DNA of 53,657 nucleotides, filler included, from Sphacelaria rigidula (Eukaryota): the NCBI GenBank assembly GCA_964200075.2. It is 5 parts of 5 records of this genome, joined end to end, with 100 filler letters (N's around TTAATTAATTAA, not from the genome) between each part and the next. Parts side by side here need not be neighbours in the genome. Positions count along the whole stretch, not along the records: positions 43,007 to 53,657 come from CAXNAA020006144.1; 4 more parts are not named here. The stretch is one strand, 5' to 3'. Under the pieces are notes generated by a model. It made no database searches. It saw only the letters and a list, made by a program, of their open reading frames with translations, and was not told the origin of the DNA. Positions 375-53,657 of the stretch are shown piece by piece. The translations under genes and the position numbers were made by a program. The first letter of the stretch is position 1. Each line of letters opens with the position of its first letter.

Positions 375-697
375 CCTCCGAGGCGGGGAACCGTTCCTAC
401 TCCCACCAAGAAAAAACCTCCACCAGTTCGGCGCCCATGACGTTTCTTCCATACATTATACATCACGCAAAAACCTTTACCCGTATCATGTCCCATTCCT
501 GACTCGCTGTCCGTCACCACCATTCATATACTACAGCGATCGTTTTTCCGCTACTGTCCCCATGTATCGAAGTCTTGTTCAAGCAACACGGTGTGGTGAA
601 GACTGACTGTGATTAATGGTGAAACAAGAGACGCGGACGACAGGGGAAAAGGGCACACGCGGGGGGGGGCAAAAAATGCTTTTGAGACTTGACTCAC

Positions 698-9210: not shown

Positions 9211-10652
9211 CTTGCCACTCTGACCGTCTAGCGGAGCAATCCGCAGACGACAACAAAGCTTTATATCTGTGCCCCCCACTACCTGGGAAGCACGGTAGAG
9301 AAGTTTGTGTTTGCGCGCGTGTGCGGCAAACGGGTGTTGGGTGTGTCTGCAGTGGGGACGGCGCAACAGGATTTCGTCGGATTGGTCATTTCGTAGTGAA
9401 ACAGTAAATACCTAAATTATATGTGTAACCGTCGTTGGGCCGTTGTAATACTGGTATATAGCTAAATTATAAACTGTAGAAAATATGATTCCGAGGTATG
9501 TAACCGTCGTTGTAACTGGGAAGTTCGAAAGAACCGTATATCAAAGTACACTAAAGCCAGCTGATAGATATGTCACAATCTCCGAATCATGACGTACTTA
9601 CTCACAGTTTAGACCCTCTCCGCAGTGATGAACCCTTTCAGTCGCTTTACTGCACTGGTGGCCCGTTGTTCCCTGCTTCTGCGCCATGATGCGTGCCTAC
9701 TACTACGGTACTTTTGACTTCGTTGCGCCTCATCGTCTGATCATGTTTTATCATACGGTGCCGAAATATCGTGGGCACCCATATACAATATTACGTACCG
9801 ACCATGATAGATTTCTCAGTGTAGCATGCATCACGCCTACAACAAAAGCAATAACAGTGTGCGCCACAACATGCAGTTGAAACACTGGGTGGGGGAGTTA
9901 AATGCTTCGCCATGAATAATTTCGATGTTCGTGTTGCTCATTGTTATAACATCATTACTACAAAGCAGCTGTAATTATGGTGGGATCATGATAGTATCCC
10001 ACGAGCATGCGGTGTCGACGTGCACAAGTGAAAAGCATAACCATCACGTACAACAATAATTATTATGGACTGCTGACGAGGAGAGTGACTCGTCAAACCT
10101 GATGTTTTTTCATGTATACTGCCTACGACATAGTAGATAATAATAGTGCTATAAAATATGTACCGTACACCGTCAGTAAAGTAGATAGAAGGGTGTGTAA
10201 ATATAAATATATCGAGATTGACAACATAAAGTACACGTACAGTACACAGTACGGTACTCTGTGCTATACTGCACTGCTACTGGCTAGATATAAAATGTCG
10301 ACATTCTCTATAAAACGGAGGTAAATGTACAGATTTTTCGTCGTTCCATCCCCCTGTACAATAACAACCCCCCACCCCACCCCTTCCCCACGTCTCGTAC
10401 CGGAAGTATAAGATGTTGCTGTAATTTCCGAGTCATTCGTCATCGCTACGCGCAGCTGCATCTTTGCGTTCAAAAGTTCTGCACGCGTACACGCTGTTGT
10501 TGCTGTTCTTGGTGACTTGCAACGAAGTTGATGCACGCGTAAATTTTATTTATTACGCGCGTGCCTGTTACCATCATGATGTTACTGTAACTTCGACTGA
10601 CATTCATCCATCCATCAGCCGGTCGCCCCGGTGGCTCAGTTGGTAACCTCGT

Positions 10653-10752: not shown

Positions 10753-10833
10753 GCGTGCTCCGTCCCGGCCTTGTAGAGATGCTAGGTCAATGTTCACATT
10801 ACTATGGCATGCATGATCATCAGTACAACCCCT
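10753..10833 (+). mobile_element. Family-B 3' end at contig start
   Basis: GCGTGCTCCGTCCCGGCCTTGTAGAGATGCTAGGTCAATG...GGCATGCATGATCATCAGTACAACCCC. Confidence 0.75.
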
Positions 10834-12802: not shown

Positions 12803-13188
12803 AGAGAGAGAGAGCGTTGGTAGTTGTGTTATGATAAGTTTTGTTTAGTTTGTGTTCATGCGTCTGTTCGTCCGTGCGTACACATGCGTTTTTTTTCTTC
12901 TGTTTTATCCCGTTTGAGCGCTCATGTGTTCCCATTTTGTTGGAAAATGATTTGTCAGATTTAGGTGTCCCATCTGATGGGGAATGACTTGTTAGATTCA
13001 TGTGTCCATCTGCGGAAAATAAGTCGTCAGGTTCGGGTGTGACGTGTCCGGGCACTCGGCGGAGGCATACATCTCCCCGCGGGATATGTGCAATATATTC
13101 CGAGATCCCCCGATACTCCGTGGAAGAGCTCGTGATTGCTTCGCCTAAAGTAGCGATTGCTTTTCTTGTTTGTTTGGAGAGGGGCGGT

Positions 13189-13262
13189 GGGGGGCATACT
13201 CATTTGTTGCTTACCTTAGTCGTTCGACCATTGACTACGCATCCCTTTCGAGATGGAGCACC
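13189..13262 (-). mobile_element. Family-A LINE 3' tail fragment
   Basis: G6-CATACTCATTTGTTGCTTACCTTAGTCGTTCGACCATTGACTACGCATCCCTTTCGAGATGGAGCACC matches 46137-46210 in reverse complement. Confidence 0.8.
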
Positions 13263-20489: not shown

Positions 20490-20742
20490 AAAAAGCAACT
20501 CATTGTAGGCTGTCATTTGAATGCAAGATAATCAGTAGGCCTCGGGCCGAACAATCTTAGCAGGGTACAGCCCACCCTTTATGCGACTCGCCGAACACAC
20601 CACGGCGCTTCGCGCTTGAGGGTTGAGTGCGAGCCTGGTCCGGCGAAAGCCCGCTATGCTCCGTCCCGGCTTTGAAGGGTGCGAGGTCGAGGTCAATGGT
20701 CTTATGATTATGGCATGCATGATCATAAGTACACCTCCTGCC
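20490..20742 (+). mobile_element. Family-B dispersed repeat (SINE-like, shares LINE 3' tail)
   Basis: GGGCCGAACAATCTTA...GCGACTCGCCGAACACA...GCTTCGCGCTTG...GAGCCTGGTCCGGCGAAA...GTCAATGGTCTTATGATTATGGCATGCATGATCATAAGTACACC. Other copies at 10753-10833, 21325-21404, 26230-26490, 32256-32358 and 53542-53595. Confidence 0.8.
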
Positions 20743-21504: not shown

Positions 21505-21550
21505 AATGGTCGAACGACTAAGGCAAGCAACAAATGAGTACGCCCCCCCC
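21505..21550 (+). mobile_element. Family-A LINE 3' tail at contig start
   Basis: AATGGTCGAACGACTAAGGCAAGCAACAAATGAGTACG followed by C8. Confidence 0.8.
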
Positions 21551-21774
21551 TGCCTTTTCCCCTTCCACCCCTCCTTCTCTTTTTAGCCCTGTGATTTTCC
21601 GCCGCGATTCGTCATTTAAATATGAGGAATTTTACCCCTGAGCGTACGTACCCCCAAAGTCTCGCGTAATATTTGTTCAACAACTGCATATCTTGGGTAC
21701 GTGTCCCTCCATTGATATAACACGGTCATGTACACATCACATCACATGACCCTCCCTCCCCTCCGACCACAGTA

Positions 21775-22524
21775 CCGGGATTGACGTTCGCGGATGATTT
21801 CGTGGGGATATCCCAAACACTGAAGGATTGCAGAAATAGGGAATGTACTACGTAAAATACACGGGGAAATGGGCAGTATTTGCCTGTAACGGAGACGAAC
21901 GTTATCCGATGGAGTCCGAGTGGAAGTAAGAGAAGGACTTACGGATTGTTAACCCTTATACAGACCCCGCTCAGCGTAGAAATATTACGAAAAGAAAACT
22001 GTCCTGAGGATTCACACATGGATAAAGAAATAGAACAGGGTAGGGCACAGACGGATAGGCAGGATGGCCGCGATCTTCAGAGGCTCGCACCTCGATACTA
22101 GGGTTTCAGATACGTATTTTGATGAATGTGACTGCGCCGAAGCTAGAATATGCAAAAGTCCGGGAAGGGAGCGCGAAGTTGTTGGATAAGTTGAGAACAG
22201 TACAAATAGCAGTAGCTAAGAAGATACTTGAATGCTCTAGAATGGCGCGCAATACCGTATTGAGAGCAATCGTTGGTACATCGGAGGTAGTAGCGAGAAA
22301 ACTATCGCTATACTAGGGGATAGATGGCGGTCACATACGGCGAAACAGGAAAGGGATGAGACACGCAAAGGGTTCTGTGTCGTGTATGGATGAAACGTAA
22401 TGACCACTCAAATGGTGGTGTTTCTTGAAGGAGTTGGAAAGGTCATCCGTCTCGAAATGGATGCGTGGTCGATGTTCAAACGACTAGGGCAAGCAGCAAA
22501 TGCATACGTTCCCCCCCCCCCCCC
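21775..22524 (+). mobile_element. 5'-truncated, decayed copy of the same LINE lineage
   Basis: FADDFVGIS at ~21788, then HLDTR and MNVTAPKLEYAKV...KKILECS, homologous to 44860-45360. Ends in a family-A tail followed by a C-run at ~22511-22524. Confidence 0.85.
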
Positions 22525-27820: not shown

Positions 27821-29859
27821 CCTCCGTATCAAGCAATCGTCACAAATCGAGTAAATAGATCTCAACGTGATGATCGCCACAGATCCTTTTGGTGTTTTCA
27901 GACCTAGTCGGTTGTTCTCCAGGAATATCACAAGTATATGTGGGAAGTTGAAGACTTTGTTTTCGTTTTTACGTGTTTGGACGAAATAGGCATACACGAG
28001 CGGGGAACCTTCTATTTTCCGCCTCTTCGTAGTCCGTCTGCAGCATCGTGTACTGTATCACTGCCCACTTTTCGGCGTTGTTGTCAGTCTGTATGTCTCC
28101 CTCTGATTTGTGACTAAGGGCGGCACTGACGCGTACGGATAGCAGAGTTCCGCGGAGAACTGAAGGGGTCCAGTTGTATTTTGACGAATACCACATACGA
28201 AAATAGTGCAGGATTTGTAGGAGGCGTCTGGAACGGAGGGTTGAAAGAGGAGAGGGCTCGCTTTGTGGTGGTGAGGGGCTGGGTGATCGAATGGTTATCC
28301 TTACTCCGGCCGTCCGATGTTTCTTGTCTCTCGCTATGATCCGAAAAAGACGAAAACGAATGCGCGCGGAAAGTGGTACCTCTGAAGCGTGCTGGTTTTG
28401 CACCGTAAAATAGTAAAATAGGAGTTGGAGATGTACACTTGGGAGGGTGCTGGTTTTGCGCTACACGTCGTGGACACGGATGTGTCGGGGTAATGACATG
28501 GCGAATTTACCCACAAGCGAGTGCGCGTAAGGGGCTGGGCGGGAGGGAGGGAGGGAGGGAGGAAGGAACTATGTGGGAGAGGGGGGGGGGGAGGGGGGGC
28601 GCAGTATAGGGGGCACCATGTACGTTGACATATGGTCTACTGCTGCCGTGCATGCGTACGTGAGCTTTGTGTGTTGTTTGGTTGTGTTATATGAAAATAC
28701 AACGTTACTGTCGTTGCGTACGTGACAGCGCGCGTGCGTGTTATTCTCATCGCTTCGGTTCCCATCGGCTGAGAAAAGACATTTCAGGAAAGCCTTGTTT
28801 CCTCCTGTCGTAGTTTGAGGCTCCACGAAAGTGTTGTCTGGGACAGAAGAGTGCATTTCAGGCGAAGCGGCGATGACTCGACCGAGGCCCTAGCGTCCCA
28901 ATGACGGAGACTGCCTTCGGCGGGTTGAAACCATCTCGGGGCTGTTCCTTATTTTGTTTTATTGCCGGGTTGACATCAACAGGAGAAATCGAGAAGTAAT
29001 TCTTCGCGGCTGAACAAATGTGGGAGGAGACACTCTCACCAGGTCCAGCCAACCGTCCATCGATTCAGGTGAACGAGCAGCTGAGCGCGCTAGACTATCC
29101 TGGAATATGCACTCGCTCGTCAATGATGCGTGCACGGGCGTGTCGGGTGGGATATACTCGATATTTCCGGTTGCTGAAGGGTCGCATATCACCTTCGCTA
29201 AAAGTCATGACATTGCAGCATGCTGCTGTGGGCATGGGTTGAATGTCCTTGTTTCAAAATCCGTAATATTCGGTATACCCTACCGGACGTGCCTGTGACT
29301 GTGTGTATCATTTACCGCGCATACGTGACAAAAACGGTTTTATTCGTGTTTGCGCCTATCCAGTCGATGAACGATCGATTCTCTCAGACGTGAGCCATCG
29401 TCCTACATGCGTCTGGAAGTTTTCACCCTCTCTTCCCAGTTTGTGGCAAGGACGCGTTTTTCCGGGAGAGACGACGCAAACGCCAGTAAGAGGTTGGATT
29501 CGATCTGTCAGCCGACGTAAGGAAATTCTGATTTTTACAATTTCATTCCACTCTCACACAGTTCCAATATCACGACGTGCATTTGGTTTTTTGGTATCTA
29601 CTGCGCGTGAAAATTCGACGGGCAATTTTTTTGCGACTTTGCTTCTGCGACCCGACTCTTGAACCGTTTTTTTGCCCGATTTTCCGACTCTAAAACCCCG
29701 ATCAATTTCGGGTTTTCGGAGAAAACTTTGTCGGACAAGAACCGAATGAATCTCATTCCAAAGGGTCGCCTGGCCACTCGGCAGTTGCTGCTCCCCACCT
29801 GGTATCATCCTGCAAATCAAGTTGTAGTTTCGTGGGATGAGAGAGGAACAAACCAGGGA

Positions 29860-31914
29860 AGCATCGCTCGCTTCTGCCCACGGATCGTTTCCTCTCTGCA
29901 CACAGCGATCACATACTCACGCACCGTGGATCGTGTACAGCATGCCCCCTACTGCCACGCTATTCTTTGTAGTAGCTCGCTGGAGCCGCTCCCTGTACTC
30001 AGCTAGTGCTCGGGTAAGCAACAAGCTGTTTCCGACGGCTACTGTCACCGAGTGCAATAGCAGCACACGCGCGATGTGTACTTTTCGTTTTGCCCAGAGA
30101 AACAAAATCGAAACGGAAAAGAAGAAGCTCTTGGTTCTCGCCCACGGACCGTTCTCGTTTCTGCACCCCGCGATTGCACACACGCATGCACCGTGGATCG
30201 TGTACAGCATGCCGCCGACTGCCACACTTTTATATGTTGTAGCTTGCTAGGGCCGCTTCCTGTGCTCAGCTAGCGCTTAACTAACCAACAAGGCGTTGCC
30301 GACGGCTGCTGTCACCGAGTGCACCAGCAGCACACGCGCGATGTGCACTTTTGGTTTCGCGCAGCGAAAGATAATCGAAACGGAAAAAGCAGCGCTTGCT
30401 TCATGCCCACGGATCGTTCTTGTTGTTGCACCCAGCGATTGCACACACTCACGCACCGTGGATCGTGTACATCATGCTGCCGACTGCCACATGTTTTATT
30501 GTTGTAGCTCGCTGGAGTCACACCCTGTGCTCAGCTTGCGCCCGTGCTACCAACGAAATGTTGCCGACGGCTGCTGTCACCAAGTGCACCAGCAGCACAC
30601 GCGCGATGTGCACTTATGGTTTCGCGCAGCGGAAGAAAATCAAAACGGAAACAGCAGCGCTTGCTTCATGCCCACGGATCGTTCTTGTTGTTGCACCCAG
30701 CGATTGCACACACTCACGCACCGTGGATCGTGTACAGCATGCTGCCGACTGCCACACTTTTCGTCGTTGCAGCTTGCTAGAGCCGCTTCCTGTGCTCAGC
30801 TATCACCTAACTAACCAACAAGGCGTTGCCGACGGCTGCTGTCACCGAGTGCACCAGCAGCACACGCGCGATGTGCACTTTCGGTTCCGCGCAGCGCAAA
30901 AAAATGTAACGGAAACAGCAGCGCTTGCTTCATGCCCACGGATCGTTCTTGTTGTTGCACCCAGCGATTGCACACACTCACGCACCGTGGGTCGTGTACA
31001 TCATGCCGCCGACTGCCACACTTTGTTTTCTAGTAGCTTGCTAGAGCCACTCCCTGTGCTTCGCCAGTGCTTCACTAACCAACGAAATATTGCCGACGGC
31101 TGCTGTCACCGAGTGCAACAGCAGCACACGCGCGATGTGCACTTTCGGTTTCGCGCAGCGGAAGAAAATCGAAACGGAAACAGCAGCACTCGCTTCGCGC
31201 CCACAGATCGTTTTCGTTTTTGCACCCAGCGATTGCACACACTCACGCACCGTAGATCGTGTACATCATGCTGCCGACTGCCACACTTTGTTTTGTAGTA
31301 GCTTGTTAGAGCCACTTCCTGTGCTCCGCCAGCGCTTCACTAACCAACGAGGTGTTGCCGACGGCTGCTGTCACCGAGTGCAACAGCAGCACACGCGCGA
31401 TGTGCACTTTTGGTTTTGCTCAGCGAAAGAAGATCGAAATGTTGAAGGCAGCACTCGTTTCTCGCCCACAGATCGTTTTCGTTTCTGCACCCAGCGATTG
31501 CACACACTCACGCACCGTGGATCGTGTAGAGCATGCTGCCGACTGTTACAGGTTTTCATATTGTAGCTCGCCAGAGCCACTTCCTGTGCTCAGCTAGCGC
31601 CCGTGTTCCCAACAAGCTGTTGCCAACGGCTACTGTCACCGAGTGCACCAGCAGCACACGCGCGATGTGCACTTTTGGTTTCGCGCAGCGGAAGAAAATC
31701 GAAACGGAAACAGCAGCACTCGCTTCATACCCACGGATCGTTCTTGTTGTTGCACCCAGCGATTGCACACACTCACGCGCCGTGGGTCGTGTTCAGCATG
31801 CCGCCGACTGCCACACTTTTCGTCGTTGCAGCTTGCTAGGGCCGCTTCCTGTGCTCAGCTAGCGCTTAACTAAACAACAAGGCGTTGCCGACGGCTGCTG
31901 TCACCGAGTGCACC
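29860..31914. repeat. Tandem satellite, ~265-bp unit, about 8 copies
   Basis: The anchor GTCACC(G/A)AGTGCA recurs at 30044, 30311, 30576, 30841, 31105, 31370, 31635 and 31900 (spacings 267, 265, 265, 264, 265, 265, 265). Confidence 0.95.
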
Positions 31915-32255: not shown

Positions 32256-32358
32256 GGTCCGGCGGAAACCCGGCGTGCTCCGTCCCGGCTTTGTAGGGAT
32301 GCGAGATCAATGGTCTTATTTATGACTATGGCATGCATGATCATGAGTACACCCCCCC
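32256..32358 (+). mobile_element. Family-B 3' end at contig start
   Basis: ...GGGATGCGAGATCAATGGTCTTATTTATGACTATGGCATGCATGATCATGAGTACA followed by C7. Confidence 0.8.
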
Positions 32359-33498: not shown

Positions 33499-36400
33499 AT
33501 TTTGGAGGATCGACTGAACGACAAAAAGGAGGCCCTCCTGGAGAAGGAGCTCGTACTGGAAGAAGTTATTTCTCTTACGCAGAAGCTGCGCAAGCAGGCG
33601 TCGGACGGAAGAGAGCAATCGCTGCTCGTTTCCAAGAAGGTAATCACTTCGTATCGTTGCACACGCCCACGTATCACACTCACCAGGAATTTTGTTCTCG
33701 TCCCGAGTATTGTGCCTGGTGGGGGTTCAGGTTGCTGGGTCCTTCACTGGACAGGGTACCCTTAAGGCTGCTGATCTAAATCCGCCTTTCCAGAGACAGT
33801 GCACTCCAATGTGCAAGGTAAGGCGGTGATGGGTTTTGGCGGATTCGAAAACATCGCGGTAGGGGGGCTGGCTGAGAAAGATGGGACGAGGAAGCGAGAG
33901 CGGCACGGGGAAGGATATCCATCTATGATAGGGCATATATTGGTGTTGACTGCTACGTGGTCGAACGCTTTGCACATTCCTCATGTACAACATGCGCCTC
34001 CTGTCAAACGCACTGAGGTTTCGACACTGTCTTGCGGTTTGCATTCATCTTTTGGTTGCGCATTCTCAACAACCATCCTTGGTGAAAAACACGACATTCA
34101 GGATGTCGTGAAGTTGTGGTCAGATCACGAATCGTCCAATCACTTCTAACCGTTTTCGCTCGTTTGGGCCATACCCTTGTCCCCCTTGATTACCACCTGT
34201 TGTGTACGTTCTCAGGTGAACGACTTCCAAGGACGCATCCGAGACACGACGCGACGAATGATGGCTACCGTGTCAGAGCTGTCAATGCACCAGGCCACGG
34301 CTCTCAAGCTGCAGCAGGAGAAAATGTCAAGGGAGAGAGAGTTGCAAGACGCCACGTGAGTTCTGACACATCTCTCCTGTACCGATACATGATCGATGTA
34401 ATGTTGACGTCTGGTGAAGTAGAATTGCCAACCACCAACGTCCAAGAATCATGCTCGCTATGAGCATGACCATGTCGTTCTGTTCGACCCCTCTTTCTTT
34501 TTTTCTGTTCCTCCTTCTTTCTCAGATCGTGTTTCAGTTTCGTTTCCTCGGGTACGTCTACCATGAGACAACGGCTGGACCCCTGGGGGGTCAGTTAAAG
34601 TGCGACAATCAATCAATCAAAATCAAAACGTCAGTCGGTATCGCGTGCCTTTGTGCCTGCAGCAGCGTGGAGTTCTCAAGCAGGAACATGGCAAGCAGCG
34701 GTAACCGCAGTTGTGAATGGTTTTGGCAAGTGGTTGTAGAAACATGACAAAGCAATGACATCGACAGAGAAACAATGCTTGCAAAAACTGATGATTTCAA
34801 CATGAGCAGATAATGATGGCCATCGGTTGCTGATCCCACCGAGATACTTGAGATTTCTTCCTCGCCGCTTGATTCGGGATGCATAAAGAATTTATGTAAC
34901 ATGGCAAATGCCTGCTTAACGCTAGTAACAATGTGAACACAACACCATGGCCTAAATCGAACGACGGTCTCTTCTTGAAAAATACATCCTCTGTACCACA
35001 AGTTAGGTCAATTATATTTCTACAGGCCCTTAAGTCCGAGTTTGTTTGTTTTTTCATTATCGTTCGTTTCAGCGTTTTTTCGGTTAAACTCCACTGCGTT
35101 TGCACATGTCCATCGCCATTATGCAGCCGAACGAGGATAAAAATTGGTCGACCCGAAAATGGCCGTATTGAGCCCCTGTCAGGGGGGCTAAGAAAACGGA
35201 ATAAAGCAAACAAAACAAATAGTAAGCCGTCTTCGTCGTCACTGGGGCTTGATACTAGATAGTCTCAAGCCGTTCTGAAGGCGTCCTTATCGTTTTATTT
35301 ACCACCTTTTCCGACGTTCCCGCCCTCTGCCGCGCCCTTACCCCGGTATGCCCTTAAACGCTTCCTCTGTCTCACAGTTAGGCCCCAAAACTGGAAGAAG
35401 AAAAAAAACGCCAAAATAGAGCATATTTTGGCCTACTTTGTTTTATAAAAATATAGCTTTGTTGTCGTTTTTTAGTTCGTTAGCATCGTCTGCGTCGTGT
35501 CTTTCTGATAAACCCAACCATAGCGTCGTCAACACCTCTCTCTCTCTCTGTTGGGGCGGTATGATCTGCATCCCATAGTGCACCTAACTTATGGGACAGA
35601 GGGAGTATAGTAGTAGTACATGTATTTGCTAATATCTGTTGCGAACAAATCGTCCACTCGCGACAGCCATCGTCTGCGTTATATTAACAGTACATTGGGT
35701 CTACCACACTTGAAACGTCTATTGTGATAACTCATTCCAGCAAAGGCTCCTGAATATACGGGGAGGGTTCGGAACCGGTTCAAGTATCTAATTTTCCGTG
35801 ATCCCTAACTGTTCGCGAATCCTTGGATATTCACCGTTAGGTACAGGAAATTAGCGGCAGAAATGAGTCCGATGTGCAGATTTCCACTCTTCTTGTTGCT
35901 CTATCCCTACCCAGATGTCGATTTAGTAGCTAAGGCTCCACGCATATCTTGGTATCCCTGGCCGAAAACAGCCGATCATCGAAATTGAGGGTGGAGCTTT
36001 TCATTGAGGATGAGAATCCGGAGAGTTAAAATCTTCGTATTCACACAAAATCTTCGAAATATGGTTATATTCCTTCATCTACTGGTAGCTATTGACAACT
36101 ACTACACGCCATACAAATTTGAATTCTGATAACCGGTATGTTGGGGTCCTAGGTGAAGAATCAATTTTGGGGAGTGTAGCTGATCCGATCGGACCGCCTG
36201 AATTCCCCGAAATTGTTTCTTCACCTAGGACCCCAACATTTCGGTTATCAAAATCCGAATTCGTATGGCGCATACTACTGATCGATAGCTACCAGTCAAT
36301 AAAGGAATGTAATCATATTTCGAAGATTTGGTGTGGATATGAAGATTTTATTCCCCTGGGTTTTTTTTTTGCTGTTCCTTTCTTTTTGTTTTCCTTCTTC

Positions 36401-37923
36401 TTCTTTTCCTTAGGAGCGTGTTTCAGTTTCGTTCTTCTTGGGTACGGCTATCATGAGACCACAGCTGGACCCCTGGGGGGTCAGTTAAAGTGCGACACTC
36501 AATCAATCAATCAATCAATCTTATCCTCAATTAAAAGTTCCATCCTCAATTTCGATGATCGGCTGTTATAAAAACCGTGTGTTTCTATTTCTATGTTTCG
36601 ATCTCGTCCACTGAGATGGAGCTTTTGAACACTCGGTAGGATTGGAAACGACCAAGACTACAAATCGCCAAACTCCCGATTGTGTCAACCGCAAACACAA
36701 GAAACATGGACCTGAAGCGTGGTCGTCCATAGCAGTCTGATGGTTTCAGCTCACTAACATGACTTGTAGAAGAGGTTTTGTGCCCAGGGTCAGCTTGTAA
36801 GATTACTTCCTTCCATCGGAATATTTTCACGTCCGTTCCTTTTACAGGTTGACGAAATGTTTCTTAATTTGCACTGCTACGCGCATTCTCTCTCACAACG
36901 AACGCGATATATCTTTTTTTACCTTCAGGTGGAGGGTTGAGCACGGGGAGCCACCAACAGACGAAGCTGTATGGGAACTTCACCGCTTGGAGCAGAAGGC
37001 CATCAACGACCAGACGATGCGACTGGAGAAGGCGGAAACAGAGGCTGCTGGCGAGGCACCGATACCTCCCTCCATGGTGATCCTCGTTGCAGTGACTGCG
37101 TGTCAACGTGTGTTGCACTTTCTCTTGGCCTAAAGAGATCATCCGAACGTGTGCTTTCTCAAGCCAAAAGACTTGAAAAATCACACTTGCCTCATTTTCG
37201 TATAAAAAAAAAAAAAAAAGTGCTTGTCTGTCGGGGTGGTCCCGATACACATCGAGCGAATCACCTAGTTTAGAGCCTCAACCATGGTGCAGTGTGTGAA
37301 ATCACCAACATCATCACGCCTCTAAGTCGCACCATATCATAGAGAACCACATGCCAAATTTCAAGTTCCCGTGACCTCACGCATGCTCTTACACAGCCTT
37401 CGGTGGTTTCATGTGGCTGCACTCGTAGTATACCCAGAAAAACTGGTTCTACTTGATGAAAATTTACCCGTAGTGCATAGTTCGTCGATGCGGCAAACAT
37501 GACCCGTAGCCACGAAAAAAAAATTCCCCTTGTACCCTCGAGTTCGGCCGCCGCTTGGGGTGCGGCAGCCTCACGTCTTTTGTGAAGAACAATCCACATT
37601 CGCACCGCAGGGAAGCCACGACCGTGAAGCCTGAAAATCGCTCTTGCGAGGAGATGAAAGCTCCGCACTATCGAATAATCCCGCTTCATGTCCTTCCCTC
37701 ATGAAGTGTTTTGACCGCCGTCGCACGGTGTACTTACTACATTCGTGCGTGTTTCCTAACCGTTCAGATTCGCACGACCGCGGAGCCGAGGCCAAATGCC
37801 TACATCCCAGACGAACTGGGTATTCCGAAGCCATACGGGGGGTCGGGGCCTTTCAAACCTACCGAGGCCGGCACCACCATGCGGCACATTCGGCTGCCGA
37901 AACCCAGAGAAATCGAGATTTGA
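33499..37923 (+). CDS. CCDC146: Coiled-coil domain-containing protein 146 (MBO2 homolog), last four exons (5'-partial)
   Basis: Exons 33499-33639, 34216-34355, 36929-37076 and 37768-37923 are GT-AG and in phase. They encode [17 protein letters not shown]..., [25 protein letters not shown] and the characteristic C-terminus [49 protein letters not shown]. Confidence 0.92.
34490..34627 (+). mobile_element. Family-C repeat: T-rich segment + CTGGACCCCTGGGGGGTCAGTTAAAGTGCGACA + (ATCA)n tail (probable retroelement 3' end)
   Basis: Similar copies at 36355-36520 and 49355-49585, and a diverged copy at ~13330-13455. The copies end in (TCAA)n or a decayed form of it. Confidence 0.7.
34985..35605. mobile_element. 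Stowaway-like MITE (TIR CTCCCTCTGTCCCATAAGTTAGG), TA-flanked, with extra internal left end at 35361
   Basis: TA|CATCCTCTGTACCACAAGTTAGG at 34985, CTTCCTCTGTCTCACAGTTAGG at 35361, and CCTAACTTATGGGACAGAGGGAG|TA ending at 35605. Confidence 0.65.
35967..36567. mobile_element. Fold-back element whose right arm is interrupted by a family-C repeat
   Basis: AACAGCCGATCATCGAAATTGAGG pairs with CCTCAATTTCGATGATCGGCTGTT. Inner arms are TGTTGGGGTCCTAGGTGAAGAA and TTCTTCACCTAGGACCCCAACA. The insert spans ~36355-36520. Confidence 0.8.
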
Positions 37924-40260: not shown

Positions 40261-41981
40261 AAGGATCTCCACTGTCTACGGTAGATGACCGCATCCGCCA
40301 ACGCTTCGGCTAAAAACCAGGGGACACACGGCTGGGTGCCCCCCCCCTCAAAAACTCGAATTTTCGATCTTGGGGCCTACGTGTCCTGGAAAAAAAAAAT
40401 TCGCTGCCCCCTGAGTAACATGGAAAAGACTCACGCAAGATAATGCGAAGTTTTCGCAACAGGCACGATACAAAGGACATTCTGAAAATGAAACCCATTG
40501 CAGCTACATAGTAGCAAGTGGTTACCGTACGCTCATGCAGACAGTGTCACTGACATGATCAGGGAGGAAGGGGATCTGATGAGGTACACGTCAAACGTTT
40601 CGTCAGAGTCCGCCTGCCCACACGTTTCTCGCCACCCTCATTTCACGGCGAATCCTGCTTTGATTATTGGTCAGTTTACTGCGGGCAGTCGTCAGCCCAC
40701 ATCGCTTCGTCACCTTCAGGCTCCCCCCCCCTACAAGATGACTCAAGCATGTGCCGATCGCAAGGACAGCAGGCAAACTTGACGACCATTTCAAAAATTC
40801 GAGGTTCTTCCCTTCCGCAACTTCAGCACACGCGCATACTTCGTCGAAAAGAGCCATTAAGCGTGTACGACTTCGGTATAACTTCGAGGGAACACACTCG
40901 TCATCGTGCTTGCTCCACCTCGGTATAGATATATCCATCATCTGAGACGCCCACCTAGTATCTCGCATTCATGTGGGATGACTTTGAAAATCTTGGATGG
41001 CCATCCATCCGAGAGATGGATGTCCACCTGAAATTTTCAGTCGGAATCATCTGGCGTCGTCCCTCTGAAATGTCCATCTGGAATGTGGTCGTCATTTGGG
41101 AGGTGAACCTCGATCTGATATATGGATATCCACCTACGGAAGGACATGCATGAGTGTAGCGCAGGGCGGGATGCCGTGGTGCAAAGAGAATGCTGGAGTG
41201 CACGGCAGATGCCCATATGGGGTGCCCATTGACGTGACTGCCACCTGGCATTTCCATTTGGACCTCGGGTGTCTTACTGACGTCCACCTGGGACGTGAAC
41301 GTAGATATAGAAGGTCTCCGCTGCTGATCAATTCAATTGGCTTGTCGGTGTTTTTTCCCGGCTGTTGATCCCCATTACCCACTTAATTCCAGGTGAAGCA
41401 TGCTTCGAGGTACCGCCCTCTGTATCTGAAGCACTTTTGTTTGGTCCAGAGACGGCTGTTGGCCCTGCACCACTGCAACAACTTCACTAGACTCCCTTCT
41501 CATCTTCTCCAGTAAATACCTGCGCCTCTGGTTCAACGAAAATGTCAGCCCTACACTGTGCCATATCAATACCTTAATACAGGTAGGTGCTGCTGTGAGG
41601 CTCGAAAGCGGTACTGATGTTTCCACATGGGCCTGACATACAAAGACCTATAGATAGTGGCGTGGATCTACGTTTGCCATAGACAGCCGCGTGGCACTCG
41701 GTTCCACCTATACAATGGGGATTCCTTGATCCCTTCGCCTGATGACATGGTGCATCCGCTCACAGACCCATCTAGACAAGCTCCGAGTAACCCCCTCCAG
41801 TTCACTTCAACGTTTCCTCCTTCAACAGTTCCACGTCTGTCAGACTATCATTAGCTTAGCACGCTCGAATGAGCGCATCGAACGAGAGAATCATAAAAAA
41901 CCATCAACAATGCGAGCCTATCTTGTCCGAGTGACAAGGCATGGGTCAATCTGTTCCGTGATATTTTCAGTAGCAAGGTTG

Positions 41982-42121
41982 CAGAAAAGCTGGGCCAGAT
42001 ACCCGTCGGTATCCAGATTCGTACATTCGCGTTGGACTCAAGATCTCAAACCAGAAAAGCTGGGCCAGACACCCGTCGGTATCCAGATTCGTACATTCGC
42101 GTTGGACTCAAGATCTCAAAC
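41982..42121 (+). repeat. 70-bp direct tandem duplication
   Basis: CAGAAAAGCTGGGCCAGA(T/C)ACCCGTCGG...AGATCTCAAAC twice, one mismatch. Confidence 0.9.
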
Positions 42122-42906
42122 CCTATTGGAGCTTGTTCATCTATGAGGTGTGACAGAGGTGCCGGGCTATATTATGATAACGACTACTTTTGGAAGACCT
42201 CGAGGTTGTGCAATAAAGTGGTCGCAGTAATGGCTGTCCTCGGCATAAAGGCACATGTGCTAAGCTACGGCAGGGAACCCCTTCGATTTGTGTTGAGACG
42301 GTGCCGGGTTAGCGCTGTCGTGGATATCATGAAAACAATGATTGCAAGTGACGTGAGAATTCCTACGCTCCTGCTTCAGGCGGGAACAAAACCATACTTC
42401 GAATATCTTCTATTTCTTGATGCATGTACGTGCTGAAGCTGTAGGAGGGAGGCGTCTCGACATGTTGAAATGGTGTAGGGTTATCAGCAACCCCCGAAAC
42501 ACCTGGCGCCACAGGATGGGGATAGTGCCGAGAAACTGGAACCCAGATGTCTCGCCCAACTTTTTCGCGACCTTACACAATGGAAAACACCGCGCAATAG
42601 TACGATTCGCGACTTGTCGCTCAGACAATAAGATAGACTTGCGTTGTCGATAACGTGTTATTATGATCCTTTCATTCGATCTCCTTACTTGGATGTGCTG
42701 AACTGATGATGGCCCAACAGATGTGTAGTGGTTAAGGGTGGACGAGTGAAATGAACTAGAGGGGGTTACTCGGAGATTGTCTAGATGCGTCTGTGAGCGG
42801 ACGCTTTTCGATATAGCTCACCTACGACCATAAGCCAGCATGATGTATGTTGTGTGTGTTGTGTCGTCCCATTTATTCTGGGCGCCAGTCTACCCCTTTC
42901 GGGATA

Positions 42907-43349: not shown

Positions 43350-46210
43350 TGAAGGCATTATTCAGTGTCGTTGAGCCAGCAAAAGAACTGGAAACACCAG
43401 ACCCCCAACAAGTACTAGGATTGGGATGTCCCAGTGCGTTGGGTACATTCCACCAATACACTTGAAACAATTGAGCTGGAAATTCTCTCGAAGGAGATCG
43501 AGAGAGAGAGAGACGGTAAGGGAGGGCGGATGGAAAAGTAAAGGGTGGACGGGTACAGTACTAGTAGTGCTGGTACTCGGAGTCCGTAGCGATATGACGA
43601 GAATAGAGTTCAAAAGGAAATGCAATGGAGTTGGATAATACTGTTAGTCAACAGGAAAGGTAGAAAGGGAGGGAGAACACTTGCGATTCACACTAAAACA
43701 GGGAGCGAGCAAGGAGTGGGAAAGGATAGAAACAAGTACGGTATCGGCATGGGTTAGAAGGGTAGGGTGGAGAGTATGCGTTGCTAACGGAATAACAAGC
43801 CTAGGACGTGGTCCACGGGGAGGGGGAGAGAGGTAGGAACAGGTAAGTGCCCGGAAGGGGAAGGATAGGGGACATAGCGGCCCAAAGCAAATAGACAAAA
43901 ACTGACACATAAACGGGAAGAACAACCAAGCAAGGGAAAGTAAAAGTAAAGGCGACGGAGAGAGAACAGTAGACAACACGAGAGCAGATAATGATTCGGA
44001 GAGGAAGTTGAAAATAGGATCGTGAAACGTGTGTGGATTCGTCGCAGACGAGCACGAAAGAATAGAGATAGCGCAACACGTAAGTGAAGGCGACCTGGAT
44101 TTAGTAGGAATCCAAGAGTCATAAGAGAAAGAGGGGGCGGAAATAGGATGCAAAATTAAAGAGTACGCATGGATAAGGAAAAAGCGGGAGGGGCAGAAGT
44201 CCAAGAGCAGGGAGCGGGGGGAGTAGGATTCTTGGTCAAGGAATACCTGTGTGACAGTATAGAGGTGATCGACGACACAAAATTTGACGAGGGCATATTG
44301 ATAAGGGTACGAGGAGGGCGGGGAACGGAAGACTTCTTCGTAGGTGACATCTACATGCCCCCAGAATCGAAGAGTAGGGTGAACGATATTCAGCGGAGTT
44401 GGAGAGATAGCAGCAGATGTACACAAGTATAAAAGGTAAGGAGATTTATTGTTAGTCGAAGATTTTAATGCAAGGGTAAGAAGAGCAGGTCAACCGGATG
44501 ATATCATTGGCCAATACAGGCAAGATAAGAAAAATACGGATGGGGGAGGAATGCTCAAGTTCCTTGAGCATAACGAGATGAAGACGCTGAACGATAGAGC
44601 AAAAAAGCCAGAAGCGCAACGGACATGGACGAGAAATGCAAAGGAAAAGAGAGAGAACGCTCCGTGCTTGACTATATAGTGGTAGAGCGTGGAAGTAGTA
44701 AGGAAATGGAATCTTTTTTTATTTTTTACAAGGAGTTACACAAGGCTGTACGGTACCACCCACTCTATTCAAGGTATTTACTGATGACCTGATGATGGCA
44801 ATAGAAGAAGCAAATCAAGGAGTCAAGGTGGATGAAGATATGGTATCAGGATTGATGTTCGCGGATGATTTTGTAGGTATTTCAGAAACACCAGAAGGAT
44901 TACAGAAACAGATAGACAAGGCGCTAGAAGACACTATGAAATGGAAAGTGACAGCAAACGCTAATAAATGCGCGGTACTCGTCCGTAACGAAGATAAGAA
45001 AAATCCGGTGGAGTTCAAATGGAAGTGGGGAGAAGAGGAGTTGCCCACCGTAGACCAGTATACATACCCTGGCGTAGAGATCTCACAATACTGTTCTTGG
45101 GATGCACACATACACAGAGTAATAGAAAAGGATAAGGCACAGATAGGCAGGATGGACGTGAAACTCGGAGACTCGCATCTAGACACTAGACTTAAGAGAT
45201 GTATCGTGATGAACGTGATCGTACCAAAGCTGGAATATGCAGGAGAAGTATGGGAGGGGAACGTGAAGTTTGTGAAGAAGTTGGAAACAGCACAGATGGC
45301 AGCAGCTGAGAAAATATTTGGATGCTCGAAAACGACGAGTAATGCAGCATTGAGAGCAGAGTTGGGATTGCACTCACTTAAAACAAACAGAAACATGAGG
45401 AAATTGCGACAGCAATATAGCGTAAAGAACATGCAGAGAAAGAGGCTGCCAGCTATAGTTGATGAGGCTGAATGGAAGAAAATTACGGAAGGGCGGACTG
45501 GAATCAGGTACGATAGAGAAGTCGAGAGAGTATGGAAGGAGATAGGAAAAGACCTAGACGATATTGTCCGTAGATGAGGGCGCGGTGTACAAGACAAAAG
45601 TAAGAGACATCATAGGAATAAGGGGAAAAGAAACGCCCGGACGCAAAGTAGACGAGGAAGAACACCTGGAGATATACGGGGGGTTGAGAGAGAGGACAGA
45701 GATGAAAGTATATTTGCATGGCCCAATAGACGCGGCGAAAAAAGTGAAACTGGGATTTCGTGTGGGGGACCTAGATCTGCCAGAAAGAAGAAAGGGGTAT
45801 ACCAGTCGTCGAGAGGAGGAGGAAGAAGTAGATGCACAGAATTCCCCCTGTGGCAAAGCAATAGAGAGAAGAAGTCATAAAGTGCCAGAATGTGAACTAT
45901 ACAAGGAGGAACGGGACGTGCTAGCGGGGGGAATGCGGCACGTGAACGAAGGTGGCATGAAATCGTTTAATGCATTAGACAGTAGGGAGGAAACGATGGC
46001 TATACTAGGAGATGGATGATGGCCACAGACGGCGAAACAGGGCGGGGATAAGATATGAAAGAGATTTTTGTGCAAGGTATAGAAGAAACGTAATGAACAT
46101 CTGAATGTTGGAGGTGTCTCTATTAAGAGTGAGAACGGTGCTCCATCTCGGAAGGGATGCATGGTCGATGATCAAACGGCTAAGGCAAGTAACAAATGAG
46201 TACGCCCCCC
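43350..46210 (+). mobile_element. Degenerate non-LTR retrotransposon (LINE; APE endonuclease + RT), internally deleted, C-run 3' end (family A)
   Basis: APE motifs across stops and frameshifts at 44010-44690 (IGS*NVCG, VGIQES, GGVGFLVK, IYMPP, DFNARV, LDYIV). RT C-half at 44728-45577 (QGC, MFADDFVG, KLEYAGEVW). The same frame as ORF 45564-46019 reads through stops to V*KKRN...KASNK* followed by GTACG-C7. The 5' boundary is approximate. Confidence 0.9.
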
Positions 46211-48629: not shown

Positions 48630-49045
48630 GATATTCTTCACTTTGAGACATTTGACACCGATAGTGACCCCCAAAAAGGGGGAATATCGCTGTCGTACGT
48701 CTAGGGCACTTTGCATCACCCCACCGAGAGGAGTCTTGCCCACTCTTCCGGTTTACTTGACTCCTAGGTTCCGAGAGCGATCTCTGGATAAAGAAATACC
48801 ACCCCTGGACAAAAAGAAACAGTCTGTGCGGGGGGGTTGTAGTTGAACTACCTCCAGACCCCACGTTTATCTATCCAGCTGTACTGGTGCTCAACGATCG
48901 TTCTCGAAACCTCGCAGACAAGCGAATCGGAAACGTGGGCCAGACTCCTCACGGTGGGGTGGTGCAAAGCGTCCAAGACATGTGATGGACACAGTCCCTG
49001 CTTGGCCCCAAAAAACCGGGTCGCATGTCTCAAAACTGGAAAATA
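48630..49045. mobile_element. Diverged relative of the 23864-24336 fold-back MITE
   Basis: Shares CACTTTGCATC..CAC.GAGAGGAG.CTTG and TCTCGAAACCTCG...AAGCGAATC..AA with the 23.9-24.3 kb element. Retains degenerate inverted arms. Confidence 0.6.
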
Positions 49046-49470
49046 TTCTCCAGAAAATAGCACCAGTAAAAAACGGTCTCGAGGGTTTTGTTAATGGGTC
49101 TAATTTTGTTTTGCGAAATCTTCTACTTTCTCCAAGAAGAAATGTGAGAGCAGATCTCTGAACCACGTCACTCAACCAGGTCAGGCGATAGATTGATTCA
49201 AGACTGGCTAGAGTGGTGCAACGACATCCCCCCCCCACCCACGCCCATCCGAGAAAAATGGCTGGTTTAAGGGGCCAATATATAGATGTAAACCAAAATA
49301 ACAAGCCGAGCACACCGACTAGCTGGGAACTCCCGTCCTTAGGATTATTTTCGCCGATGATTTTTTTTTCTGTTCCTTTTTTCTGTTCCTTTTTTTTTTT
49401 GAGCGGGTTTCAGATTCGTTTTTGTTGGGTACGTACGTCTACCATGAAACCACGGCTGGACCCCTGGGGG

Positions 49471-49540
49471 GGGGCGTACTCATTTGTTGCTTGCCTTAGT
49501 CGTTTGACCATTAACCACGCATCCTCTTCGAGACGGAGAA
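49471..49540 (-). mobile_element. Family-A LINE tail inserted inside a family-C repeat, with apparent 7-bp TSD
   Basis: Insert is flanked by CTGGGGG at 49464-49470 and 49541-49547. Uninterrupted host sequence occurs at 34575-34600 and 36465-36490. Confidence 0.8.
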
Positions 49541-50619
49541 CTGGGGGTCAGTTAAAGTTCGACAATTAATCAATCAAAAAAATCAATGTCGCCCAAATGA
49601 GGGAATATACGCTGGGCACACTGAGCGCGATGGCTCACTGACGAGGCGACCACTGTGTGTCCACGTATGCTTAGCACTGTTAGACCAACAGATTTACTGT
49701 TGGTCTCTTATTTCGATAGTCGTTCATATCGGGTGAATAGCAGTACAACCTCCGCATCCTCAGAGGATTGCAACAGTTCTAAGATTGTTGGCGGAGCTTC
49801 CGGGTCTGCCGGGTTGATGTAAAATTCTAGGATTATCATTCCTTCATTATATATTTAGTTCGGTGGGATTAATGTACAGTCCCAGGATTCTCGTGTGTAA
49901 GAATATTCTCATGAGTAAGAACATTCTCTTCAGCATGAACTTAGCGTAGCGCATTGATCCGAGGGTACTCGTGGGTTGCTCCCACACCCTCTCACTCTAT
50001 ATTTCTTCCTCACTGTCTTCACTGAGATTTTCTCGGCCACATAAGCGCCAATTTCCAACATCAGTCTTCTCGACGAGCAAGTGTGCTTTACCGCCACTTC
50101 GTGCTGGTCCTGTGCATTCCCTTGACATATCACGCCACATCAAGAACTGCCATGTTGTTTCAAGCACGCGGTCTAATCGCCAATATCCTACGGGTATCGC
50201 CACAAAACAAACATCGCAAACAATCGTGGATTGGACTGAGTGGCATCTCCCCCAAGGCAGGATGCGGTGTTATCATCCCCCCGTAAGGTTCGGCATTATA
50301 TGCATGAAGCAGGCGCTCTCCAGAATTCATGTTCTACGCTTTGCACAACTTACCCCAACGGTCTTCTCGATGTATTTCCGTGTCATAAACGTGTTTTCAA
50401 TCGCCAGATCCATCCTGACCGCCCGCGGGCTTTCCCCCCATTCTCCTACGCGGGCTGCGTACCCTGAATTCACAACCATGCTGATGCGCGACTGAAATTG
50501 TAAACACAACACAGTTCCTCTCCCCCGTCACAAGCAAGCCTCCGTTCGTACGTTTTACAATCATGCGCAAATTACGTCGGCGACTATGCTAAGGATGCAC
50601 GTAATTTATCTTTCGGTGA

Positions 50620-53347
50620 CTACACTGGAGTTGCTGGGGCCATGGAGAAGTTGTCCCCCGAAATTCCGGACTGATTCTCGGTCGTAGATCGTTGCCCGCG
50701 CCCCGAACCCCCTGCGTTCTCTGCGGACCGTTCTCGGTGTGCGGACCGTTCCATGTTTCTGAGGCGTTGCCAGAGTCTGATCACGAGCCGCGGAAGTGGC
50801 GCGGATGCCACAGGCATTGGTATATACTCACGCAGCCTGCTAGCACCGCTGGAGGCAAGGGTCGAAGCCTCGTGAAAGATTCGAGCGGCTCCTCTCAACT
50901 CAATGCCGTTTGCATCGACTGCATTACCGTTTCTTGCGTAACTACGTTCTCGTTCCGTGGGGGGCATTATGTTGAGGTTGGCCTTGCAGTAAGGGCATGA
51001 AGGGTTCCCGCCAATCCACACATCCAAGCACTAGTTGGCCGACACATGTGAGGTGGTGTTTATCGAAGCGTCACAATACGGCCGATCGTGGGGTAATGTG
51101 GAGTGGTATACGACTATACAAGTGAGGGCGAGGGATAACTCTGGATCGGGTTCAGCGGATGTATATAACGAGTGCAGCCTCCATCTAGGATGTGGAAATC
51201 CCCCTGGGGCGTCCATCTGGGGTACGGATGTCCATCGGGGATGTCGACACCCATCAGGGATGTCGACACCCATCAGGGATATCTGGGTTATCCACATCTC
51301 AGATGGGTCTCTAAAGTGGACATCCCAGATGGATTTCCAAAATGGACATCCCCGCTGGGCATCTCAGATGAAAACCCACATCCCGGATGGATATCCAGTC
51401 ATGTGGGGTATTTATGTCCCAGATGAATGTTTATACCCCAGATGGGTGTTCAAGGTGGACCTGATACTCCAGGTGGGAATCCCAGATGGACGTGCATACC
51501 CAAATTGATATCTACCTGGAATGTGGTATCTCAGATATGCGTTCATCTGAGATACGCACATCGCAGAGGAAGGTTGCACGATAGTATAGGGCCCCCTCGA
51601 ATGGCGCAACATGGGAGGTTGATACCAAAATGCGTACAGCTAATATTTTACGTGCAGAGGTTTGACCGTTTCGATTCATGTACACGAAGTTGTAAGGCGG
51701 GGAGTGGACAAAAAACCCAGGTCTGCAACCCTCCTCTACCGCATAGATGTTGCTCACAAACACGAGAAGCTCTCTGGCAATACCAGGCACGGATGGTTTG
51801 CTAGACCAAAGTTAACGACCATGGTTAAGTATCCTTGCGGTGCCGCAACACGAGCGGGAAACATGTAAGCCTACCTCTGCGTGGAAAATATGCAGGCACG
51901 GAAGCACGTGCACGGGCTCGCCGACTTCGTACTGTCCCAAGCAAATGGCGCATATATCGGACAACTCGCTCACGCTTACTGTCATCGGCGCCTGCACCAC
52001 TGAAACACCGCCACCACCGCCACCACCTAGACTAGTCCCTTCTTCAAACCCCGGCGTCGCAGCATCAACCTCACTCCAGTTCTTGCACTCGCAGTCCCAG
52101 TCACTGATTTCCTTCCCTTGCGCTCTTGTACATTTGTGAGTCATCTCCGCGACTTTCATTTCCGGGCATGCATCCCGATGTCTGATGGACTTAGGGCTGC
52201 CGCCGGCGGCAAGATCAGCGGCTGCGGCTGCGTCGGCCGCGCTGGTGATACCCTCGGCAGCCTTCATCTCGAGGGCAGCGTCACAGTGGTCATCAGCGTG
52301 AGAGAGAGACATCGCTAGCGGTTGACATTGTGGGTGCTGTCGCGGTCGATCTTGTTCGGTGATCTTTGCCCGGCGTTGCTGCTGCTGCTGCTGTTTCTTG
52401 TCACCCTCACTTGCTTCAGTAGGTTCTACTTCCGCGCAATCGAAGGTCGTATTGTCACCCTCGGCAAAAGGACTTGATCGACCGTCGTGAACATTGTCTG
52501 AGGGCACCGTTTGTTCACCGGGAGAAGATGTTTGCAGCACAAGGCTGACTGTTTCAGTGTCTCTAGGGCTCCTACTTTGCAGAGACAACGAAGATTTCTT
52601 CGAGTAATTTCCGTGGGCCATTTCGAAGCCGGCGGTAGCGATCCCCCGTAATATTGACAACGATTCGAATGCCTGTGAGGAGTCAGGATCTGCCTCGATA
52701 CCAACGCTTTTCAACTTAGCCTTGGCCGAAGCAACTACGCCAATCTGCGTTGCTGACGCCAATGAAGCCCGACTGTCGCGGGCTTCCAAACCAGCACCCC
52801 GAATACCGTGGGTGGCGCCCGAGTCAAGCACAAGCTCTTCTCTCCGATCATGTTCTCTATTCCATGTATCTGCGATACCCCCATTAGACGCTGAATATTT
52901 TGGAGCAGAGGAGACCCGGGGCGACGCAGCCCACTCAGAGCCAGCAAATATATTTTTTTCGCTCTTCTGCTCCGTCATCCCATCGCTACATTTCTCCCCG
53001 GCATGCATGAATCTACCTTCTTGTGGTTTTCCGTCCTGAAAAGTGTCCCTCCTACGCCGTCTATCCCGGTGTTCCCAATCCCCCTCTTGCGGTATTTCTC
53101 TGGCCTCTTCATCCTCTGGTACCCTTGCTGCCTTCTCGTCGTCCCTAAAAGAAACGGGACAGCTACTCAGGTCGGTACATGTACTACTTTCGAAGGATTG
53201 TTGGCGTCCTGGCACTGCACGATCAGTTGCTGGGCCCGGCGTATAAAAAGGAGGCGGAGAAAGCTCCCACCCAACCGGAGGCCGGATACTCGTGCCGACC
53301 CGACGCATTAGGCATGCCGTGCTGTCGAAGCGAAACGTTGCAAAGGT
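50620..53347 (-). CDS. RING-H2 finger protein (putative E3 ubiquitin ligase), last two exons (5'-partial)
   Basis: The large exon ~53347-51875 (probable acceptor ctccccag|, donor |gtaggc) ends CAICLGQYEVGEPVHVLPCLHIFHAE. It splices in phase 0 to 51030-50620, CLDVWIGGNPSCPYCK..., completing a C3H2C3 RING. The 5' boundary of the large exon is inferred. Confidence 0.88.
51175..51560. repeat. Dispersed CCCAGATGGA/TCCATCTGG-motif repeat family (intronic copy)
   Basis: Motif clusters in both orientations. Similar clusters at 32545-32745 and 40915-41300 lie on another contig. Confidence 0.65.
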
Positions 53348-53541
53348 CTGGGGAGGCAGGAGAGGGCGGGGCGGTGATTTGCAGGGAGCAAACAGGGGTT
53401 GCTCATGTCGGGGGGGAAAGCTGAATGGGAGCGGAGAAGCAACGAATCGCTGAAATTTCGTCACAATATTTTGTGATCGATAGCGCTCGGGAACCAGAGG
53501 ATAATCCTCTCCCCGAAAGCTACAAGAGAGGGGAGGGGAGA

Positions 53542-53657
53542 GGGGGGGTGTACTCATGACCATGCATGCCATAGTCATAAGACCATTGACCTCGCGGGGG
53601 AGCGGGGGAGGGGGGCGTACTCATTTGTTGCTTGCCTTAGTCATTTGACCATTGACC
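53542..53657 (-). mobile_element. Stacked family-B tail (53542-53595) and family-A tail (53610-53657)
   Basis: G7-TGTACTCATGACCATGCATGCCATAGTCATAAGACCATTGACCTCGC, then a G-rich spacer, then a G-run and CGTACTCATTTGTTGCTTGCC. Truncated by the window end. Confidence 0.8.

Follow-up and report, generated by a model that had tools for sequence, protein, structure and literature searches.

The closest described systems are two RTE-X elements of Ectocarpus sp. 7, RTEX-1_Ec32 and RTEX-2_Ec32, which are annotated with a single EN-RT open reading frame (ORF), a (C)n 3' end and a C-rich target site duplication (TSD) (PMC12477816, MOESM3) and for which thousands of copies are reported (Dinatale et al. 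2025, PMC12477816). The same catalogue holds RTEX-N1_Ec32 (about 605 bp), which has a 60-bp 3' end in common with RTEX-1/2, and RTEX-N2_Ec32, of 188 bp (PMC12477816). Of its 44 rows for Ec32 RTEX-1, the 25 covered here have a shortest entry of 132 bp; they list differentially expressed copies and are silent on any 66-nt class (PMC12477816). For RTEX-1/2_Ec32, the parts of this account covered here give neither statistics on targets nor a geometry of nicking, and describe neither an RNA fold nor a class of 66 nt. In the L1, CR1, L2 and RTE clades, according to the sections of the source consulted, the 3' end of the LINE RNA pairs with the strand that has been cut (PMC6007223). A search of the literature lying outside Repbase and most subscription papers returned no account of G-run priming and no fixed short class for RTE-X, and the accessible portions of a preprint (10.64898/2025.12.07.692804) and of PMC12593883 contained nothing further on these elements.

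A window of 53,657 nucleotides from Sphacelaria rigidula (assembly GCA_964200075.2; five parts joined by filler) was analyzed, with positions counted along the whole stretch. The locus is a short insertion within a dispersed repeat, here called family C. The host copy is retroelement-like, truncated at its 5' end and tailed by (ATCA)n; its part 5' of the insertion lies at 49361..49463 (+), aligning to 36363-36480 and 34495-34590, and self-comparison places the rest of it, including the (ATCA)n tail, at 49548..49587 (+). Between these segments the sequence reads as a tail-side TSD copy, CTGGGGG (49464..49470, unstranded), an extra C tract of the inserted element that appears as GGGG on the + strand (49471..49474, element on -), 66 nt of the 3' end of a family-A LINE (49475..49540, -), and a second CTGGGGG at the element 5' junction (49541..49547). 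The 66 nt comprise the last ~19 ORF codons, a stop at 49482-49480 and 5 further bases, and tblastn with residues 1342-1360 of the related protein P0003 matches 49539-49483. Empty family-C sites at 34575..34600 and 36465..36490 (both +) each carry six G, and the pairing of these with the filled site stands as given in a preliminary description of this DNA.

The exact bookkeeping at the junctions is less certain. Genome-wide, the empty site was matched exactly 351 times with G6 and 15 times with G5, and the copy at 49541-49547 has G5, unlike the usual G6. The host would therefore have been either a rare G5 variant or a G6 site from which one base was later lost. Depending on the G count of the host, the site has a duplication of 7 bp with 4 extra Gs or one of 8 bp with 3; the preliminary description was right that a duplication and an extra tract exist, while its exact figures of 7 bp and four Gs do not hold as fixed values. 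Base 49541 can be assigned to the duplication or to element position -67 (1-nt microhomology), giving an insert of 66-67 nt. The possibility that CTGGGGG belongs to the family-A consensus, named in that description as the finding that would undo it, was ruled out because longer family-A copies have a different sequence at this position; the duplication is thus not part of the element.

A longer copy of the inserted element is present in the same window. This decayed, near-full-length family-A LINE copy lies at 43516..46210 (+), delimited by alignment to P0003, and its 3' end in reverse complement corresponds to the insert. This copy retains the N-terminus and APE domain (aa 1-383 of P0003) and the C-terminal half of the RT with the C-terminus (aa 867-1360), aa 384-866 being absent in an internal gap; its stop lies at 46197-46199 and its C tract at 46205-46210. 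An RVT_1 domain is recognizable at 44702-45574 (E 2.4e-10; E 1e-30 in P0003), and the APE endonuclease motifs are broken, Exo_endo_phos being found in the relatives P0003 and P0004. Relatives with 67-69% identity each consist of one ORF, 1328-1360 aa long, in which endonuclease and RT are combined. Proteins assigned to Ectocarpus sp. CCAP 1310/34 match the RT piece at 69% and 55% identity, and RT similarity to L1 ORF2p structures was found at E = 7e-21. The ORF stops 5 nt before the C tract, so that the 66 nt represent coding sequence plus stop. Self-comparison revealed no terminal repeat pair around 43.4-46.3 kb, i.e. no LTRs; a simple-sequence 3' end, variable duplications and 5'-truncated copies from 27 to more than 900 nt, as in LINEs, were all found. 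Judged by its sequence, the insert is the extreme 3' end of a single-ORF, APE-RT LINE that appears RTE-X-like.

Family A is abundant, with 3181 exact occurrences of its 3' 23-mer in the 244-Mb assembly. A genome search with a 280-aa RT piece showed no intact copy, and all but a few of the 142 scored RT matches were partial or contained stops. Self-comparison of the window located a second decayed, 5'-truncated copy ending in a C14 tract (21730..22524, +), a short copy with a C tract and a C-rich upstream flank (13176..13262, -), and a short 3' end adjoining an assembly gap (21505..21550, +). At 53542..53657 (-) the C tract of a family-A 3' end (53597-53657) holds a truncated copy of a second family, B (53542-53595). 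Arrays of this kind, tandem or with A and B mixed, also occur at loci L004, L020, L028, L041, L042 and L141, and are consistent with new copies entering the C tract or the duplication that earlier copies left behind. Relatives elsewhere were limited to two metagenome matches, both long copies with the same 3' module and C tract, and none was found in viral contigs.

Family B is a non-autonomous partner that shares the 3' module and C tract (20493..20738, +; also 26254-26500, 32256-32358 and 10753-10832), with 1979 exact pattern matches in the genome and longest copies of 555-564 nt as aligned. By description rather than by sequence, family A resembles RTEX-1/2_Ec32 in its single EN-RT ORF, (C)n end and C-rich duplication, and family B resembles RTEX-N1 in being at least ~570 nt long, C-tailed, directed to C-rich targets and alike with the LINE in the 3' module only (PMC12477816). 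Both families match the Ectocarpus RTE-X set in each feature tested here. Set beside RTEX-N1/N2, family B has a 5' head that is repeated internally and 5'-end clusters at ~97, 300 and 560 nt. With mammalian L1, family A has in common the APE and RT domains, tail-target pairing, variable duplications and 5' truncation, and differs from it in C:G rather than A:T pairing, a single ORF, a stop 5 nt before the tail and a sharp unit-length class. Stringent-type LINEs (RTE, CR1, L2) are similar in that a structured 3' end is common to a non-autonomous partner and the tail base equals the first base of the duplication (PMC6007223, as far as consulted). Unlike their 3' stem-loop and microsatellite tail, the elements here carry a homopolymer C tract and a predicted three-way junction overlapping coding sequence.

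To establish the target preference, family-A copies were sampled as the first 100 of the 3181 listed 3' 23-mer places, from the lowest-numbered contigs. Ninety copies were read, 10 within ~160 nt of a contig start being left out, and 13 of those read, which border a gap or the end of a contig on their 5' side, were set aside, leaving 77 usable; ten of the rows were aligned ungapped, since gapped alignment ran into neighbouring copies. C continues after the last element base in 86 of the 90 copies. In the 25 nt preceding the 5' junction, a C-run of at least 5 was found in 52/77 copies compared with 186/5000 random windows drawn from the same loci, the G-run bias among other insertions that the preliminary description had asked to see. 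The bias is strand-specific, a G-run of at least 4 preceding only 3/77 of the 5' junctions. These 25 nt are pre-existing target DNA, and some of the C-runs in them are tails of earlier copies. In family B, sampled by reading 70 of the first 100 listed places (near-contig-end places skipped; 63 usable), 42/63 copies have an upstream C-run of at least 5.

Duplications were called by a strict procedure in 30/77 family-A copies against 175/1540 shuffled flank pairs (11% false rate), with 5-16 matched bases past the run, and by a looser procedure in 25/77 against 19/462 shuffled pairs. In the 30 clean cases, the tail-side C tract was shorter than the pre-existing run in 7, equal in 1 and longer in 22, suggesting that cuts inside the run occur and that bases are usually added. 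The base preceding the run was T in 13, A in 12 and G in 5, and upstream runs are often long, reaching 17 C among the clean cases. At the other extreme, 9/30 clean duplications begin with just 1-3 C, and at locus L035 only two C follow the element, whose last bases match the target.

Five independent insertions were found in the same family-C run, namely the 49475-49540 insert and those at L040, L091, L093 and L232. They have the 3' junction in common, while their 5' junctions differ and their duplications end 2 to 14 nt past the run, so that duplication ends vary between insertions at one identical site. At L093 the run is expanded on the 5' side, for which a single simple event does not account, and at L091 a long apparent duplication surrounds the family-C copy. 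The excess of called duplications over shuffled pairs, together with the four other insertions of the same geometry, indicates that the duplications at 49464-49547 are not due to chance. Family C as a special hotspot was considered and is unsupported, there being 3 strict-pattern insertions and 2 met elsewhere in the sampling, compared with no fewer than 366 empty sites. Neither a fixed motif nor a fixed cut, as in a site-specific LINE, was seen, flanks past the C-run being variable and adjoining bases mixed. The preliminary description had regarded this site as the best single evidence for G-tract targeting; one site is weak, and it is the statistics over many copies that carry the case.

Taken together, the insertion is very probably an ordinary target-primed event by a C-tailed brown-algal LINE of known sort. 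The G-rich strand would have been nicked within or just after the G-run, and the freed, G-ended 3'-OH would have paired with the element RNA at the C tract downstream of its stop codon, as the junction geometry implies. The paired 3'-OH would then have primed cDNA synthesis over 66-67 nt, and the other strand would have been cut 2 nt past the run, consistent with the 7(-8)-bp duplication observed. The earlier placement of the nick specifically after the G-run does not follow, as the product would read alike wherever within the run the strand was nicked, and 7/30 cases point to cuts inside. Target-primed reverse transcription with the RNA C tract paired to a genomic G-run, the wider proposal of that description, is supported by the geometry and by the family-wide bias; it had missed that C-tailed LINEs with C-rich targets were already annotated in Ectocarpus (PMC12477816). 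With a C-run next to every site of insertion, DNA can be the origin of the C "tail": it may be inherited from the target and lengthened by slippage, and a poly(C) polymerase would be unnecessary.

What directs the element to G-runs can be explained in two ways. Mammalian L1 endonuclease prefers T-runs, and the APE endonuclease of family A could likewise prefer G-runs, an explanation that we hold at slightly less than an even chance. The strong, strand-specific enrichment of runs and the frequency of long upstream runs, with up to 17 C in clean cases, would fit such a preference. Alternatively, nicking may be loose and ends selected by pairing with the RNA. Against an endonuclease preference stand the nine of 30 clean targets with only 1-3 C, the variable base before the run, and L035, where just two C follow the element and its last bases match the target; pairing of the RNA 3' end with the cut strand also has the precedents in L1, CR1, L2 and RTE noted above (PMC6007223, in part). 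Endonuclease preference and selection by primer pairing do not exclude each other, the latter predicting the same data.

The length of the insert is not that of a random truncation and corresponds to a sharp mode of the family. Among the 77 usable copies, 46 end 60-72 nt from the 3' end, 28 of them at 65-67 nt, while 13 are shorter and 18 longer; the stop rate per nt is 0.081 in the 60-72 nt peak, 0.005 before it and 0.011 after it. The 66-nt insert at 49475-49540 is a modal-length copy. Genome-wide exact counts in four windows along the element (3181, 2766, 852 and 341) are ambiguous, fitting a drop at the boundary and also falling further upstream, with no clean step by themselves. The assembly under-represents long young family-A copies, and what looks like a cluster at 111-126 nt owes part of its appearance to the alignment. 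That the insertion structure or the length peak reflects an assembly artefact or chance flank matches is very improbable. The assembly is indeed fragmented (27,214 contigs, with 13/90 sampled copies at a contig end or gap) and the strict duplication caller has its 11% false rate, but short copies are flanked by copy-specific duplications, a limit of read or k-mer length predicts a cliff whereas the observed peak has a steep rise as well (from 2 copies at 43-59 nt to 28 at 65-67), and 46/100 copies remain in the mode even if those at edges and those unfetched are all scored as outside it.

Further comparisons of short and long copies bear on how the mode arises. Most modal junctions have 0-1 nt of overlap; microhomology of at least 2 nt was found at 4/21 modal junctions compared with 10/21 other truncations, a difference that is not significant (p = 0.10), lies in the direction expected for copying to the RNA end and keeps two modal and two family-B values inflated by neighbouring copies. 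Chance-level microhomology is described as typical of full-length rather than truncated L1 (PMC2912911, in the parts available). Short copies are mutually closer than long ones (mean 0.9 vs 2.5 differences over 37 nt, p = 0.02), a -28 C/T variant is common to both (19/46 short vs 4/19 long, p = 0.16), and no diagnostic base separating short from long copies was found. A self-propagating mini-element of ~119 nt with a diagnostic 5' start (59 genomic matches) was rejected: most of the 30 read extend into the internal duplication of a longer subfamily and have variable 5' ends. A homogeneous LINE subfamily (loci L276-L305) carries an internal duplication that falls within the ORF, ~120-135 nt from the element's 3' end; many of its copies lie at contig ends and it may be young.

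The peak coincides with a predicted RNA structure. A natural 67-nt family-A copy is predicted to fold into a three-way junction with closing stem GUGCUC/GAGUAC, its 5' arm starting from -67, and the 67-nt unit has a fold z of -2.6 (6/500 shuffles as stable). The mutated copy at 49475-49540 folds no better than shuffles (z = +0.67), and in longer contexts other pairings are preferred. Between one A and one B copy, differences fall at 1/42 paired positions, where pairing is kept, and at 11/25 unpaired positions, in a comparison whose positions are not independent and whose structure was derived from A. The module is coding in family A, where protein constraint contributes to its conservation; insertions in family B break that reading frame. 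The 65-67-nt peak thus appears to sit at the 5' edge of a predicted three-way junction that is kept in family B. An Rfam scan of 3 loci to E 5 gave 2 weak matches far below gathering scores and no ribozyme, so that a self-cleaving ribozyme or known structured RNA at the module was set aside, and inspection of the 66-nt unit by eye against box motifs gave nothing convincing as a pol III internal promoter.

Family B does not have the peak. Only 3/36 at-risk copies end at 60-80 nt, compared with 46/64 in family A; its 5' ends include 13/63 at 91-104 nt (20-30 nt further upstream) and 7 at 292-304. The 91-104 nt cluster coincides with an internal copy of the family's own 5' head and may have another cause. 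This ~47-nt head is repeated just upstream of and into the 3' module (20493-20738, 26254-26500, 32256-32358; L184, L191, L247, L270), and the clusters near 97, 300 and 560 nt perhaps represent short subfamilies or shared processing or start sites.

Within an explanation by LINE-driven target priming, the cause of the length class that we tentatively favour is that the template RNA would be trimmed from its 5' side down to a protein-bound module and then copied to its end. The preference stems from family B: an enzyme coming from the 3' end meets the closing stem in both A and B, whereas in B a trimming process that starts at the 5' side could come to an earlier halt. Reverse transcription of a full-length RNA that stalls or releases at 65-67 nt, at a template hairpin or through cDNA snap-back, followed by end joining, is a possible but somewhat less probable cause. 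An alternative 6-bp upstream hairpin pairs with -66 to -61 in A only and could explain why B is without a peak, and the occurrence of the -28 variant in short and long copies means that short copies can derive from long masters. A stalled enzyme accords poorly, however, with a peak at the far end of the hairpin arm rather than at its base, with a family B that would form the same cDNA closing stem and yet has three of 36 copies stopping there, and with modal junctions of mostly 0-1 nt overlap, like those of full-length L1 (PMC2912911, in part).

An independent non-autonomous micro-SINE of 66 nt, copied from its own master loci, is unlikely. The sharp unit length and the closer mutual similarity of short copies (0.9 vs 2.5 differences) would be expected of such an element, and non-autonomous RTEX-N families exist in Ectocarpus. 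Yet the short copies consist entirely of LINE 3' sequence and lack a diagnostic base, a common 5' flank and a distinct head, their lower divergence may reflect young long copies missing from the assembly, and the similar idea of a ~119-nt element failed, its copies being truncations of a long subfamily. Returning to the trimmed template, we put forward as a conjecture, on the doubtful side of even, that the 67-nt three-way junction over the last codons binds RT and resists 5'-to-3' decay, and that a trimmed, C-tailed RNA of 65-67 nt is the main template. If so, any transcribed copy could give rise to a promoterless, unit-length micro-retroposon, C:G-primed at G-runs and seeding new targets.

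As a single event the insertion is routine, C-tailed LINEs with C-rich targets being already catalogued in Ectocarpus (PMC12477816). The present analysis adds counted evidence for C:G tail-target pairing, which would direct thousands of insertions, five events at one identical site, and a sharp 65-67-nt length class matching a conserved predicted RNA module. Should this class come from processed RNA, it would constitute a promoter-free route from a LINE to unit-length non-autonomous copies and about 70 nt would be delimited as the minimal cis signal that a reverse transcriptase directed to G-runs requires. Long C/G runs are abundant in the genome, and family-A insertion may help explain them.

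Several other features of the window were observed. Family C is a separate abundant repeat (34493-34626, 36363-36519, 13854-13922; L061-L093) with variable 5' ends and shared lengths of ~100-520 nt; its body is T-rich and its tail (ATCA)n. A 49-bp inverted repeat pair of 92% identity (35967-36015 / 36519-36567), possibly the termini of a DNA transposon or MITE, has the family-C copy 36363-36519 immediately within its right arm. A tandem repeat with a unit of ~265 bp occupies 29858-31914 in roughly 7-8 copies of 80-86% identity, and further dispersed and inverted repeat pairs with 71-77% identity are found at 41752-42804, 23901-24240 and 48633-48988. Exon-like frames at ~550-9400 (-) resemble, by eye, a P-type cation ATPase. 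Open frames at 50620-53620 (-) include a split RING finger, with a Pfam zf-RING match at the end of a 602-aa frame; the insert at 49475-49540 lies ~1.1 kb beyond these frames in the same orientation and might fall in their 3' UTR.
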